Source of the DNA: Eledone cirrhosa
Taxonomy: Eukaryota
Assembly (NCBI GenBank): GCA_964016885.1
Contig: OZ024743.1
Span: 115,754,001 to 115,818,000, forward strand
Reading direction: 5' to 3'
Length of the DNA stretch: 64,000 nt
Below the pieces are notes generated by a model. The model was not told the DNA's origin. It saw only the letters and a program-made list of their open reading frames with translations, and ran no database searches. This document shows positions 22,093-47,483 of the stretch, one piece after another (the stretch's first letter is position 1; every line of letters starts with the position of its first letter). The position numbers and the translations under genes are program-made.

Positions 22093-22469
22093 AAATCCTG
22101 GTGTATTTATTTACAGTGGATTTTAAAACAAAAATATAATATATATGAAAGTGGGGCTGGAAAAGGAATAAGGAAAGGAAAAAGAATAAATATAAAAATA
22201 ATTAAACACACATGCACACACACACACACGCACACACACATATATACATACACAAACACACACACACACACACATATATATATATATATATATATATATA
22301 TATATATATATACACATACACACACACACATATATATATATATATATATATATATATATATAAATATATATATATATATATATATATATATATATATATA
22401 TATATATATATACGATATTAATAATATATATTTATTAATAAATGGAAACTATATTTATAAAACCATATT

Positions 22470-22534
22470 TATTTCATTATACATATTTCAGGGATACCAA
22501 ATTAAAATATGGTATGCCTTCATCAGACAAAATA
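22470..22534 (-). ncRNA. Minimal type I hammerhead ribozyme (duplicate at 24201-24265)
   Basis: TATTTTGT-CTGATGA-AGGCATACCA(10 nt)TGGTATCCCT-GAAAT(ATGT)ATA/ATGAAATA. Confidence 0.8.
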
Positions 22535-25055
22535 CAATATATAAACAGTTTGAAATAAATATGGTTTTATAAATATAGTTTCCATTTATTAACATCGTAT
22601 ATCTACTCCCAAAACTTGTCGAGTGCTTTTTATCAGTTATAAAATCTTTACTTGTTGTATCCCAACAATTTTAAATAGAACTTTTGCATATATATATATA
22701 TATATATATATATATATATATATATCCATACATACACATACACACAAATACACAAACACACATATAAACACACACCTATATATATATTTATATACACATA
22801 CATACACACACATACATACACACATATATACACGCATACATACGCACACACAATTAATTATAACCAAAAATAAAAAAACAATGAACAGTCATATAATGCA
22901 ATAGGCCGTCCCATACAAGTAAAAAAAAAATAAGACGTAACAAAATACACACGTGGTAAGCAATACACACATTTACACATACACATTCATACATATAAAT
23001 ATATCCATACACACATACACATATATATATATATATATATATATATATATATATATATATATATATATATATATATATATATATATATATATATATATAT
23101 ATATATATATATATATATATATATATATATCATAAAATTCTCTAAAAAGGCTACAGAATGGATTTCCAAATAAGGACACGAAAATTTAATGAAAACTTGT
23201 TCACGTGACAGCCATAATTTCATTTATAACCAACCAAAAAAGAAGCCTTCGTGAGCCCCCTTTTTTCAAGTAAAAAGAAATTCAAACACTCATATATGAA
23301 AAAACAACCTGTGACAACCCCCCCCCTCTTATTTAAAGAACAATTGTAACGCGAACTGGCGCGAAATATATTATAATTATTGACAAACCAATCAAATTAC
23401 TTCTCGAAAAACCTGGCATTTCGAGCCACTTTTTCCATATACAACAAGTAACATTCAGAGACCAACCAGATGTGAGAAAAACCACAGACCCTCCTTCTCA
23501 ACTCACCTTTTGAAAAGCAGAAGAACTGCGAAACCGGTAAAGGAACCAAATAAATATATATATTTTAAAAAAAATAAGTCTCCAGTCGCAATTTCGATTT
23601 CATCTCTTTTTCTTTATACTTTCACTCGTGTAGGACACCTCAGTAATTTTTCATCTTGGAAAAAAAACCTCACATTCTAATATATATATATATATATATA
23701 TATATATATATATATATATATATATATATATATGAAGTAATTCCGTCGGAAAGGTCCAGGAAAAGAGAGTGCTCTATGTAGGTTACAGAGCTTATTAGTT
23801 ATGTAATAAACAACATAAGATACTTATTTCCTTTACCAGTGGTTTCTTGAAAGCAGACAAAATTTGCTTTCAGTCATCAGAATGAAAAAATCCTGGTGTA
23901 TTTATTTACAGTGGATTTTAAATCAAAAATATAATATATATGAAAGTGGGGCTGGAAAAGGAATAAGGAAAGGAAAAATAATAAATATAAAAATAATTAA
24001 ACACACATGCACACACACACACACGCACACACACATATACATACACAAACAGACACACACACACATATATATATATATATATATATATATATATATATAT
24101 ATATATACACATACACACACACATATATATATATATATATATACGATATTAATAATATATATTTATTAATAAATGGAAACTATATTTATAAAACCATATT
24201 TATTTCATTATACATATTTCAGGGATACCAAATTAAAATATGGTATGCCTTCATCAGACAAAATACAATATATAAACAGTTTGAAATAAATATGGTTTTA
24301 TAAATATAGTTTCCATTTATTAATATAGTATATCTACTCCCAAAACTTGTCGAGTGCTTTATATCAGTTATAAAATCTTTACTTGTTGTATCCCAACAAT
24401 TTTAAATAGAACTTTTGCATATATATATATATCCATACATACACATACACACAAATACACAAACACACATATAAACACACACCTATATGTATATTTATAT
24501 ACACATACATACACACACATACATACACACATATATACACGCATACATACGCACACACAATTAATTATGACCAAAAATAAAAAAACAATGAACAGTCATA
24601 TAATGCAATATGCCGTCACATACAAGTAGAAAAAAAATAAGACGTAACAAAATACACACGTGGTAAGCAATACACACATTTACACATACACATTCATACA
24701 TATAAATATATCCATACACACATACACATATATATATATATATATAGAATATTTAAATATTATATATATATAAAAATAAAAAGGTGGAAAACTAATCGTT
24801 GGGAATACCACAAATAATAAATAAATAAATAGATAAAGGTATAAATGTTTATAGCTGATTTAGAGCCCTCAACAAGTTCCTGGAGCAAATAACCAATGGA
24901 AAAAACATTAAATCAGTCTGTATGTAATTATGCATATACATACACACACACACACACACACACACACACACACACACACACACACACACACACACACACA
25001 CACACACACACACACAACCATACAGATATATATAATATATATGTATATATATATA

Positions 25056-25104
25056 GCAAAAAGTATGACCCCAACGGCAGAGCTTAAGCCGTTTCGACGG
25101 CTAT
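25056..25104 (-). mobile_element. P1 fragment (one arm)
   Basis: gtatgaccccaacggcagagcttaagccgtttcgacggcta between TA repeats. Confidence 0.7.
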
Positions 25105-25439
25105 TATATATATATAAATATATATATATATATAAATATATATATATATATATATACACACACACACTAATATATACACACACACACATATATACAAAAA
25201 GTAAACATCACCACGTTAATAAATATATACACACACACCTATGAACACACACACACACCTATGAACACACACACACACACACACTCACACACACACACAC
25301 ACATATATATATATATATATATATATATATATATACATGCTTATACATACAGACATATATAATTATATACACATATATACATACATATATATACATATAT
25401 ACACATATACACAATACATACACACAGAAATAAATATCT

Positions 25440-26270
25440 ATAAATAAAAAAGGTGGGTATGTAAAGGGTAAGGTAGAAAGTAGGGGGGATTAAGGAAAAT
25501 AAATAACATAGAAAAAAGTTTAAATATATGGGGAGATAAGGGAGAAAAAGAATATAAGGGTACAGAAAGTGAGTTCAGAGTAATAAAAATCGTAGTGGAT
25601 TATAAGGGTTAAAGAGCAGAGAAGAAGTTCAAGGTGGTTGTGTCATCGTAGGAATGTGAATCCAGTTACAGAGCAGATGTGATTTCAGGTGAGGACAACA
25701 TCTGAAGATCGCGATCTTGGCGTTCAGGCAAGTTGAAGTGGCTTTCAAATTTTGTATAATTCTAAATTTTTCAGTGGTACACAAAGACAATTCTTTGTGC
25801 CCCTTTGGTATTCCCTCGAATGGTCTAAAATAGACCAATCGATAGAGTACGAGATGTTTTTATCTTTGAATTCCCACACCTTATTTGCGGGAGCCGTTGC
25901 TGTTCTTTTATGAGAGTGTTTAAAAAAGCGACATGTGCATAAAACCTGGTTTTGAACCTGCCCTGATTCATGCCAAAATATCGTTCACTCCTGGCTGGCT
26001 GGTTGTTAATCAAAGGTGTCACTTTGGCCTCATATACAACGGATGTGGTATTACATTTGACCTGTAATGGACATTCATCCGCCTTCCTGCAACTGCATCC
26101 TGGATTTATTCTCGTACGATTAGAATTGGTGATTTTAGACCTCATTGATGGGCAGCATGAGTAACTAATTTTAACTACATTTCTATTAAATATCTTATAA
26201 TATCTATGATTAGGGGGAACATGTTTGTCTAAGAGGTCAAGGAATTTCCTTCCTACATTAGTTTTGACAG
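25440..26270 (-). mobile_element. PLE 3' fragment, GIY-YIG endonuclease (Naiad-like), frameshifted
   Basis: KH.PPNHRYYKIFNRNVVKISYSC, CSCRKADECPLQVKC, VVYEAKV...YFG, SLCTTEK and CCPH, followed by a pyrimidine-rich 3' UTR. Confidence 0.75.
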
Positions 26271-26479
26271 TTAATATATATATACACACACATACATACA
26301 CATATATTCATATATACACACTCATATGCACACATACATACACCCACATGTATACTCATACCTGTACACTTATAGACGTACATACAAACACATCTACACA
26401 CACATATTTATACACATCTACTCAAGTATTTAAGTTCACATATACATTGGGGTGGGGAAGGGGGGATTAATAAAATGTT

Positions 26480-45679: not shown

Positions 45680-45880
45680 AACGGTGGTGGATTGGCAGCA
45701 GCGGTAGAGAGTTGGACACCATGCTTTGCAGCATAGAGTTACGGTAGTTTGCGGTCTGAGTTCAAATCCCGCCGAGGTTAGCTTTGCCTTTCATCCTTAT
45801 GGGGTCGGGTCGATAAAATAAAGTACCAGTAATGCACTGAGGTGATTTCAGGCGTTGTGCCAAAAGTAGAAATAATTATT
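45680..45880 (+). mobile_element. tRNA-derived SINE
   Basis: A and B boxes (GAGTTCAAATCCC), the core and the tail. Confidence 0.82.
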
Positions 45881-46602
45881 GTTAGGATTATTAATATTTC
45901 TATCATTTCAGTCAATTTTGTTATTTGTACTTTTCCTTTATCTCCATAAGTACTTATTCTCGCATTCTTATAACTAGATGTACACACATATGTGTTGTGT
46001 TCGCATGCACAATTGTTCATATGCACAAATGACGACAACATTCTGATGACTAATGTGATACATTTTCAGAATAGAAATATTACATTCCTATTTCGTTATA
46101 ATTATTTTTAAATTCAATAGTTCGATCAACTTACAATGAGACATTTAGTTACAGCCATTTAAGATTCACGTTAGCTTATTGCCGAAGTTGATATATTTAT
46201 GTGTTTTGTGTTCGGGAAAATAAGCACCTGTCGATCTGTCGATTACTTGAATACATTTAATAAAACTGAATACCCCCCTCCACTATGTTTTTGATAAGTG
46301 AAATATCATGCCACAAACAAACAAATACTTTTTAATAATGCAAATTTCATCGATCTTTGGAGACTCATAGTATATTAATGTCTTAAATTTTAGAGAAACA
46401 GTCATTGTTATAATTCATGTACAACCTGAATAAAAAACACTCAACAGTATATTTAATGTGATGTAAACAATACAGCAAAGACAATTTGATGCAAATATTA
46501 GCGGTAATTACCCGACTCCCCCGTAAATATTGACGATATATCTGATTCACTAATTTAACTATAATTATATATACATTAATGTTAATTATATGAAATATAT
46601 TA

Positions 46603-46789
46603 ATATTATTTTCTACTTTTGGCACAAGGCCAGTAATTACCCAATACATTACTGGTACTTTATTTTATCGACCCCGTAAGGATGAAAGGCAAAGTTAATC
46701 TCGGATTTGAACTTAAACCATAAAGGGGCGTAACTATTTGCTGCAAAGCATAGCGTCACACCCTCTACCGATACTGCCAATCCACCGTT
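46603..46789 (-). mobile_element. tRNA-derived SINE
   Basis: Reverse complement of the 30778/45680 family. Confidence 0.82.
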
Positions 46790-46898
46790 GTATATTATAC
46801 AGAAGCAATGCATAATGACTATATATGTGTTTGTATGGGTTCATGTATGTCTACACACACACGCACACACACATACATATATATATATTTATTTATAT

Positions 46899-47036
46899 GA
46901 AAGAATCAGGACCCCGAGAGGTGACCCCTTTAAACAGCAAGGGCTCAGCTGTCGTGGACCCTACTCTTTTAAATAACTATACACTACTACCCCTAGTATT
47001 GAGTACTCTGGTGATTAACTGTCTAAACAGGTGTTT
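46899..47036 (+). mobile_element. Degenerate P1 copy
   Basis: tcaggacccc...gctcagctgtcg...ctactacccctagtattgagtactctggtg. Confidence 0.55.
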
Positions 47037-47067
47037 ATATATATATATATATATATATATATATATA

Positions 47068-47483
47068 TATATTAAGACAGGGGGGAAGAAAAAATGGCTT
47101 CGCTTATGCTTTCAACAAATTTATTTTCTTCACAAAATCCAAAAAGAATTTTTCTTAAAAAAAATTATTTTATAAATTAAGTTGTTGGTTGTTGGTTAGT
47201 TCCTAGGAGTTCTTGGTTAACGTAGGAGGTATTGTTTCGTTTTTAGAAAGACCTTTCACGCTGAGGTCTTTCTAAAAACGAAACAATACCTCCTACGTTA
47301 ACCAAGAACTCCTAGGACCTAACCAACAACCAACAACTTAATTTACAAAATAATTTTTTTAAGAAAAATTCTTTTTGGATTTTGTGAAGAAAATAAATTT
47401 GTTGAAAGCACAAGTGAAGCCATTTTTTCTTCCCCCCTGTCTTAATATACCTAACTGTACCAAGGATTACACACATTTTCCAA
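47068..47483. repeat. Long fold-back repeat (~185-bp arms, 9-nt loop at 47255-47263) plus a 34-bp single-copy tail, in (TA)n
   Basis: tattaagacagggggg...aagacct[ttcacgctg]aggtctt...ccccctgtcttaata. Confidence 0.92.

Follow-up and report, generated by a model that had tools for sequence, protein, structure and literature searches.

Head-to-head insertions in the window

The window, i.e., the whole 64-kb stretch of Eledone cirrhosa DNA that was analysed, was searched for inverted pairs by masked self-BLAST; its 56-60 kb part is microsatellite. The palindromes were identified as real head-to-head ends of eight Penelope-like (PLE) families, seated in (TA)n (Table 1). Breakpoints are counted from the cleavage site (position 0) that was predicted on a long natural copy of the family concerned.

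Table 1. PLE-related features of the window
Feature	Position	Strand	Details
P1 head-to-head insertion	19245..19445		both arms from -40, long minus / short plus; single C/G pair between (19387)
P1 head-to-head insertion	21089..21286		arms -40 (long) / -34 (short)
F1 head-to-head insertion	22434..22686		long arm plus, 22551 on, from +2
F1 short arm	in 22434..22686	minus	-73 to +41; contains hammerhead, core 22526-22520
F1 insertion, second copy	24167..24417		within local tandem duplication; same event, not independent
P1 solo short arm	25053..25105	minus	-32 to +20, in (TA)n
P1 head-to-head insertion	31594..31796		arms -38/-38; insert 5 nt
F2 head-to-head insertion	39340..39622		join through stem II; long arm -25, short arm -38, overlapping by 10 nt
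F4 head-to-head insertion	42234..42894		minus-strand short arm spanning -345 to +60, core 42396-42390; 13-nt insert
F4 long arm	in 42234..42894, from 42652	plus	-38 to +204
F5 insertion	42911..43186		long arm minus from -43; also a tandem arm; inverted short arm from -43
F5 hammerhead core	43120-43126		within inverted short arm of 42911..43186
F7 head-to-head insertion	43507..44700		breakpoints -404/-582; hammerhead core 44433-44439
F6 head-to-head insertion	47068..47488		short arm -17, long arm -4, overlapping by 4 nt; degenerate hammerhead candidate
F9 5'-truncated PLE	47773..49440	minus	GIY-YIG domain 48313-48873; minimal hammerhead, core 47917-47911
P1 solo long arm and older P1 head-to-head insertion	53083..53467		solo arm -34; older insertion 53280-53467
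P1 head-to-head insertion	63267..63466		arms -39 (short) / -35 (long)

Inverted pairs were present at every place given in a preliminary description of this DNA, which had read their breakpoints as falling on hammerhead landmarks. The F1 long arm (22434-22592) does begin just past the cleavage site, with the other arm at -73. The F2 symmetry centre (39505-39619) lies in stem II as described (arms -38/-25, overlap 10 nt), and the F5 pair at 43117 was found with arms at -43 and -40. The P1 palindromes, centred at -40/-40, -40/-34, -38/-38, -39/-35, and -30/-30, had been placed in stem-loop II. The 3' strand of stem II is there, but its natural 5' strand and loop are missing; thus, the hairpin at this place was created by inversion and is not stem-loop II. 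At 42652, the F4 arm starts in the stem II domain, but its partner breaks at -345. The F6 pair at 47259 exists (-17/-4, 4-nt overlap), but GAAAC 20 nt downstream was unsupported as a core; the best hammerhead candidate sits at the palindrome centre itself. Within the same range, the F7 insertion at 43507-44700 contradicts the landmark rule, breaking 400-580 nt upstream of the ribozyme. Because the five landmarks named jointly span nearly the whole ribozyme, matching one of them is not by itself beyond chance.

The combination of PLE-type RT and C-terminal GIY-YIG endonuclease, i.e., that of EN+ PLEs, was found. Pfam search detected RT and GIY-YIG in F9, RT in F6, and GIY-YIG in F7, some below the curated cut-off. 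The C-termini of P1, F1, and F4 matched that of F7 (E 2e-30, 1e-30, and 2e-24), and the F4 RT matched the F6 RT (E 5e-6). CxC...C motifs precede GIY-YIG in P1, F1, F4, and F7 and are candidates for the Cys-rich linker that the Neptune clade has between RT and endonuclease. Among further PLE features, an inverted 5'-truncated copy with optional tail was seen in eight families, and a pLTR formed from a tandem in F4 only, where the tail at L277 continues into the ORF of the next unit. No RT or GIY-YIG ORF was found in the long F5 loci L279 and L280, and a GIY-YIG-like remnant was recognized by eye in F2 (L286). F5 and F2 are classed as PLE-like from terminus anatomy only.

Type I hammerheads (core CUGANGA / GAAA / NUH, stems I-III) were predicted by a descriptor check on natural copies. 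The core is canonical in F1, F2, F4, and F5, reads CCGAAGA in F7 and F9, and is a U3-A8 variant in P1. Stem I comprises 4-8 bp in six families, and stem II was read by eye wherever it is bulged. The F6 candidate (47259) has a U3-A8 core, a stem I of 3 bp, and a stem III of 1 bp; the F9 reference copy has a stem I of 1 bp. In Rfam, no hammerhead appeared among the best 150 of 225 or the best 150 of 244 matches, where microsatellite-driven miRNA matches were found. Unconstrained MFE folds gave the hammerhead shape for P1 and F2 only.

Arm anatomy and breakpoint positions

Arm ends were mapped in approximately 40 tail-ascertained genomic loci per family in eight families; these loci are best-scoring matches, not random copies, and duplicated segments may count twice. 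The P1 breakpoint counts exclude L001-030, since the first P1 query overlapped stem II, and the pattern-selected L311-340, and L421-450 are not part of them.

The pairing of a long-tailed with a shorter arm, already described for the window, is general. A tailed arm faced a tail-less arm in 171 of 180 head-to-head junctions in the eight families. Seven families have two fixed 3' ends, with tails of 39-180 nt, and the short arm ends on a TA-rich match in 7/7. Subfamily variants are common to both arms of a pair, with concordance of 49/49, 44/44, 31/32, 29/37 (P1), and 17/18 (F5) against 25, 17.6, 16.7, 5.2, and 4.8 in shuffles. Which arm reaches further is symmetric in P1 (22 vs 23), and on the basis of such symmetric arm lengths, fold-back of the long arm was rejected as the principal route. 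Among short-read contigs of one sample, none spanned the junctions.

Breakpoints are strongly clustered and not uniformly spread, but the hammerhead-landmark rule fails. Of 405 ends, 16 fell on the cleavage site, where 13.4 were expected (16/84 in a local test, p=0.11). The stem II excess is due to P1 alone (41 vs 35.6 without it) and the stem I excess to F5 alone (stem I/core, 19 vs 24 expected without it); these landmark-class counts used F4 core, F9 core, and F5 G12 coordinates that were off by one base. The F1 clusters near -82 and -94 and the -23 cluster in F5 may be alignment artefacts caused by older subfamilies or an internal inverted repeat.

A sharp single 5' end was found in three families, i.e., P1 at -40, F5 at -44/-43, and F2 at -166. 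A 10-nt window at the peak holds 97/137 ends in P1, 51/67 in F5, and 12/46 in F2, whereas a uniform spread would give 6.5, 3.2, and 2.2. The F2 insertion in the window is atypical of its family in this respect. Peak predictions were written down before held-out loci were scored, and replication was obtained in P1 (21/30, p=1e-21), F5 (9/12, p=2e-10), and F2 (4/12, p=2e-3). Predicted peaks of F1 (1/14), F4 (0/6), F6 (0/1), and F9 (1/6) were not replicated in held-out loci, and no breakpoint peak was found in F7. Ends are diffuse in F1, F4, F6, F7, and much of F9.

The cause proposed in the preliminary description was that ribozyme structure or cleavage decides where reverse transcription stops and turns. 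It was unsupported here and is considered unlikely. Both ends do fall within the ribozyme span in 54/55 P1 and 24/28 F5 junctions, but in just 18/97 junctions of the remaining six families. The F5 peak coincides exactly with the 5' edge of stem I; at junction L124, the stem I partner served as template for 5 nt. F1 had 6 cleavage-site ends against 2.4 expected, but this cluster was not replicated in held-out loci (0/14). In three F7 junctions, the fold falls exactly on stem II, the loop is retained, and the arms overlap by 16 nt; with the F2 case in the window, these junctions form a minor class that uses stem II as microhomology. However, the same kind of overlap arises from a non-ribozyme palindrome (F9, L264). 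Moreover, the hot spot is a different ribozyme landmark per family, or none. In F2, it lies outside the ribozyme, 117 nt upstream of the hammerhead core, and the P1 arms run past the strong outer stem II and terminate at a single base, where a G is added. Solo non-inverted copies in unrelated flanks, with either 3' end, also begin at the hot-spot base; therefore, the hot spot is a property of the cDNA end, not a turning point.

The solo copies bear on a second alternative, in which each short palindrome is a non-autonomous palindromic element that was copied whole and whose centre was later eroded by deletion. The recurrence of identical junctions (P1 -40/-34) and the missing ORF in two long F5 loci would fit it, and arm concordance is equally expected. 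However, the -40/-34 class recurs also with long and short arms exchanged, junction inserts are varied, palindromes exist for every subfamily variant, and solo arms share the 5' start with either 3' end. This origin is regarded as improbable. Slightly less probable still is ordinary 5' truncation close to the 3' end with the ribozyme merely nearby, which fits the diffuse ends and stands there, but cannot yield 71% of P1 and 76% of F5 ends within 10 nt, the F2 peak 166 nt upstream, or the extra G, and is refuted for P1, F5, and F2 by the held-out replication.

Putative start-site signature and proposed formation

An untemplated extra G is the mark of a copied cap in L1/SVA, according to the passages of PMC4859970 considered. 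Before P1 -40, G makes up 19/28 unexplained bases vs 7/53 at neighbouring starts (p=2e-6), and C accounts for 8/28. In a genome-wide pattern count, (AT)4 was followed by G vs C at 36:4 for -40 (hand-counted among 100 listed of 425), and at 7:8 for the control start -39 in its insertion phase (hand-counted among 100 listed of 143). In the listed rows, raw G:C is equal at -40 (59:41) and the control (60:40), and the separation appears only by the phase split, which was chosen after inspection of the pattern lists. The F2 start showed extra G vs C at 9:0 among 31 matches, or 8:0 with one duplicated locus merged. In F5, G was present in 9/9 at -44, yet stem I snap-back would template the same G, and the modal F5 start is -43, not -44.

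An Inr-like YYANWY was found at 4/5 data-defined peaks vs 2-4% of positions. F5 and F6 have a TATA box at -30/-31 from the start (30 nt in F5), and TATA and Inr occur together at only 1/211 positions, i.e., the peak. The TATA is retained in long copies of both families (15 in F5, 26 in F6). P1 has just a TATTTA variant, and F2 and F9 are without TATA. The signature is thus Inr with G in P1 and F2, TATA with Inr in F5, where G is confounded, and TATA with Inr in F6 (4 arms only). A splice acceptor behind the P1 and F5 peaks, which both have AG, was rejected, as the AG is itself part of the peak and upstream bases vary; in addition, (TA)n abuts directly, and F2 has no AG. From these sequence features, the hot spot is likely a family-specific base that represents a putative capped transcription start inside the pLTR.

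The reading preferred here is that head-to-head insertions in (TA)n have two fixed 3' sites and that their short, high-copy class ends at a likely capped start; as a whole, it is considered probable. The endonuclease would nick both (TA)n strands. In this twin priming, the tail end of a pLTR transcript would be primed by one target 3' end, while the other would start at a TA-rich match inside that RNA or a sister molecule. Both cDNAs would run off the capped RNA 5' end, at times copying the cap; after trimming, the two ends would undergo end joining with short inserts or microhomology of 0-3 nt. Breaks of longer cDNAs would be diffuse, and there any natural hairpin, including stem II, could act as microhomology. 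Breakpoints and ribozyme would then coincide owing to the position of the start site, which is in stem II of the P1 ribozyme and at the ribozyme edge in F5 and F6. The stricter form, i.e., one short capped pLTR transcript primed by each target strand at a different fixed site, with both cDNAs extended to the cap and fused head to head, so that the centre records the TSS, and with the P1 promoter in stem II leaving a 5' end unable to self-cleave, is given an even chance. A side peak at -34 in P1 is not accounted for by cap run-off.

The formation of PLE tandem and inverted ends is named as an open question in the covered parts of PMC8557442 and PMC2377424. The present results offer a base-exact and testable breakpoint rule for the commonest short PLE insertions, and the evidence speaks against ribozyme cleavage setting the breakpoints. 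If the proposal is true, transcription start and formation mode of inverted insertions would be readable from the genome, possibly allowing PLE promoters to be mapped from DNA alone. In evenly spaced samples totalling 200 kb, P1 arms were met 5 times, and this density suggests that the process shaped a visible share of the 3-Gb genome. The rule was not found stated in full-text searches of openly accessible papers.

Comparison with known systems

The comparisons below refer to the portions of each source that were covered. EN+ PLEs (Craig et al. 2021, PMC8557442) similarly have a 5'-truncated inverted copy adjoining the 5' end, a tail at one end, a (TA)n bias, and a hammerhead in the pLTR. However, tails there are 30-40 nt, whereas they are 39-180 nt here. 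No breakpoint rule is given in the passages covered, which ask for a mechanism.

In PAc Poseidon (Frangieh et al. 2024, PMC11167929), the tail is likewise set by two RT start sites, each target strand is cut and then extended, and HHR cleavage is unneeded, i.e., HHR-dead mutants insert normally. No difference in start site between the strands was seen there, whereas one site per arm was found here (171/180). Priming in vitro occurred there without target homology, whereas the short site here is a TA-rich match. Inverted products and 5' junctions are not described in the portion covered.

L1 twin priming (PMC4859970, PMC11702581) is alike in that microhomology places a second primer on the RNA, end joining links the cDNA ends, and full-length 5' ends carry an extra G. 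However, the second L1 primer lies beside the stop of the first cDNA, and the arms hardly overlap. In the present insertions, both arms would be copies of one stretch up to the RNA end, which yields a palindrome.

The minimal type I PLE hammerheads of Cervera and de la Pena (2014, PMC4209133) share the short stem I, the short or palindromic stem III, and the U3-A8 core variant, seen here in P1 and F6. Also reported are pairs of motifs that lie 100-700 bp from each other on opposite strands, and the passages covered hold no breakpoint analysis. Because the putative P1 start lies within stem II, a 5' ribozyme copy would be incomplete.

The Penelope of D. virilis (Schostak et al. 2008, PMC2377424) has a defined start site with an Inr inside the pLTR, and its 3' pLTR is also able to drive transcription. 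Its promoter is internal and TATA-less, whereas F5 and F6 have the TATA at -30/-31, which is LTR-like.

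Palindromic PLE junctions and their 3' ends

The window is microsatellite-rich animal DNA, at positions 115754001-115818000 of its sequence in a 3.0-Gb assembly. By masked self-BLAST, all inverted pairs cited in the preliminary description were recovered, and further pairs absent from it were found, e.g., the F7 case and a 198-nt palindrome that probably represents an additional family (table). Each pair was a head-to-head junction of two Penelope-like element (PLE) 3' ends, with (TA)n at both outer ends. RT and/or GIY-YIG remnants were present in six families, i.e., P1, F1, F4, F6, F7, and F9. 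By eye, a GIY-YIG-like remnant was noted in F2, and no RT or GIY-YIG remnant was seen in two long F5 loci. Clear type I hammerhead folds were found in F1, F2, F4, F5, F7, and P1, and the folds of F6 and F9 were weak. The P1 fold is a U3-A8 core variant, already described in the available text of PMC4209133. In Rfam, no hammerhead appeared among the best 150 of 225 and the best 150 of 244 matches. In long P1 copies (L005, L009, L023, L101, L179, and L305), core position 8 was A in 6/6, and position 3 was U in most and C in two; thus, some lineages may be inactive.

Features of the window, with the two fixed 3' ends of seven PLE families (nt from the predicted cleavage site)
Position	Feature	Family 3' ends
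1-13900, 26808-28490	Related non-LTR copies (APE, RT, zf-RVT), minus strand, tandem-like row
3444-7031	1195-aa open frame in the non-LTR row
16809, 30783, 37273, 39624, 45683, 46592, 55677	Dispersed short repeat, SINE-like in appearance, often adjoining PLE ends
21321-22988 / 23131-24695	Tandemly duplicated local segment, 97-99%; contains nested PLE ends, among them the F1 palindrome
22085, 23880 (minus); 41841-41885	Hammerhead-like motifs just upstream of (TA)n, families not mapped
22434	F1 case	+144/+54
39505	F2 case	+197/+55
40116-40313	198-nt palindrome adjoining (TA)n, arms 86% (self-BLAST)
42012-42141	F2 insertion; inverted 29-nt tail end joined to a -44 arm via 4-nt microhomology
42652	F4 case	+204/+60
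43117	F5 case	+95/+15 (or +28)
43507-44518	F7 case	+229/+49
47259	F6 case	+231/+192
47773	F9 case
	P1 cases	+101/+20; +11 in subfamilies with shorter alignment
56151-60428	608-nt direct repeat (95%) alternating with 1-2 kb ATAC/ATAT microsatellite arrays

Seven families had two fixed 3' ends each, the shorter always on a natural TA-rich match. A tailed arm was paired with a tail-less arm in 171 of the 180 junctions having a tailed arm; F9 supplied 5/9 exceptions. In F9 (L241-L270, L371-L379), 5/7 junctions were long-long, against this pairing rule. Its copies often run beyond the apparent end into non-TA sequence common to copies, so the real 3' end may be further downstream. Subfamily variants were common to both arms of a pair, far above shuffles, which indicates a single RNA or a single source locus as the origin of both arms.

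Breakpoints and the hammerhead ribozyme

The preliminary description proposed that hammerhead structure or cleavage sets where reverse transcription stops and turns. Because its five cases at five different landmarks could not test any rule, the genome was sampled. The query of each family was the tail alone, 3' of the ribozyme (30 loci each), which left the 5' ends unconditioned, and the reference was one long natural copy. Every arm in every locus was mapped and then de-duplicated, with the base just 5' of predicted cleavage as position 0. The loci were best-scoring matches, not random copies, and arms with <85% identity or a 3' end that was not intact were dropped. Peak predictions were recorded before the held-out set, i.e., most remaining matches in 80 stretches, was taken.

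The 405 arm ends within -200..+10 were compared with a uniform, crude null across that range. The cleavage site (-2..+4) was not enriched, i.e., 16 ends vs. 13.4 expected (local test 16/84, p=0.11). F1 alone gave 6 vs. 2.4, and its cluster was 0/14 in held-out loci. Stem II held 159 ends vs. 73.9, of which 118 were from P1; without P1 the count was 41 vs. 35.6. The 5' strand of stem I and the core held 75 vs. 28.8, 56 of them from F5, and 19 vs. 24 without F5. Since each excess belongs to a single family, no landmark is common across families. The earlier observation largely stands, and breakpoints do cluster; the explanation by the ribozyme is mostly wrong.

Hairpin microhomology was a minor class. 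The fold was on stem II in three F7 junctions, with a 16-nt overlap, and in the F2 window case; palindromes outside the ribozyme give the same joins (F9 locus L264).

Putative start sites and the extra G

P1 ends were concentrated in -43..-34 (97/137, mode -40; held-out 21/30), on the 3' strand of stem II. Those of F5 lay in -47..-38 (51/67; held-out 9/12), at the 5' edge of stem I, and those of F2 in -169..-160 (12/46; held-out 4/12), 117 nt upstream of the hammerhead core. Peaks of F1, F4, F6, and F9 were not replicated in held-out loci, where informative arms numbered 14, 6, 1, and 6. By the Inr and TATA consensus sequences, four of the five data-defined peaks fell on the A within an Inr-like YYANWY motif (2-4% of positions in the background), and in F5 and F6 only one of 211 positions combined a TATA with an Inr, namely the peak. 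The P1 -40 start pattern had 425 genome-wide matches vs. 143 for -39. Solo (non-inverted) copies start at the same base; their flanks are unrelated, and both 3' ends occur among them.

At P1 -40, the preceding base unexplained by natural sequence or partner arm was G in 19/28, and at nine neighbouring starts in 7/53. Raw G:C ratios in pattern matches were alike (59:41 at -40, 60:40 at -39; 100 listed matches each). A repeat-phase split, intended to distinguish base insertion from substitution at a seamless join and chosen after the lists were seen, gave 36:4 vs. 7:8 (Fisher p=0.0015), counted by hand in 100 listed matches each of the 425 and 143. The same split was then used on F2, where the 31 matches yielded 9:0, or 8:0 with a duplicate merged. 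In L1 and SVA, untemplated G is accepted as the signature of cap copying, according to the available text of PMC4859970. At F5 -44 the unexplained base was G in 9/9, the base also expected from snap-back on stem I. Terminal C addition, whatever the RNA end, is another possible source of the G, which even then would point to an RNA end distinct from the cleavage site.

On this reading, the P1 cases and the F5 case arose by run-off at the inferred start. The F2 and F6 cases are hairpin-microhomology joins, atypical for their families, and the F4 case is an ordinary truncation within the 80-nt stem II domain. The F1 arm at 22551 may be run-off at the cleaved end, a single event of a class that is not enriched.

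Proposed mechanism and known systems

Beside the established features, i.e., fixed 3' ends, long/short pairs, arm concordance, peaks, G, and motifs, a mechanism may be proposed. A capped transcript would start within the pseudo-LTR (pLTR), where transcription of D. virilis Penelope starts in the available text of PMC2377424. Both nicked (TA)n strands would prime on it, each at a different site, both cDNAs would run off at the cap, and their ends would then be trimmed and joined. On a long RNA, cDNAs that begin at its downstream pLTR would have diffuse ends, as seen in F1, F4, F6, and F7. Inversion by fold-back of a single cDNA is argued against, because junctions had mostly 0-3 nt overlap or short inserts and no arm was systematically longer (P1 22/10/23, F5 9/7/12); two cDNAs are favoured. 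Among F5 junction inserts, L145 contained repeated restarts at the 5' end and L124 bases copied from the partner strand of stem I, which suggests template jumps following run-off.

Judged from sequence, the rule that breakpoints fall at one putative start base is well supported in 3/8 families (P1, F5, and F2). Such a start-base breakpoint rule was not found in the article texts searched. The two fixed 3' ends are consistent with the two RT start sites of PAc in the available text of PMC11167929, to which the present data add that each of the two strands uses its own site. L1 twin priming comes closest as a model, as far as the available texts of PMC4859970 and PMC11702581 describe it; the difference is that both PLE arms copy the same stretch.
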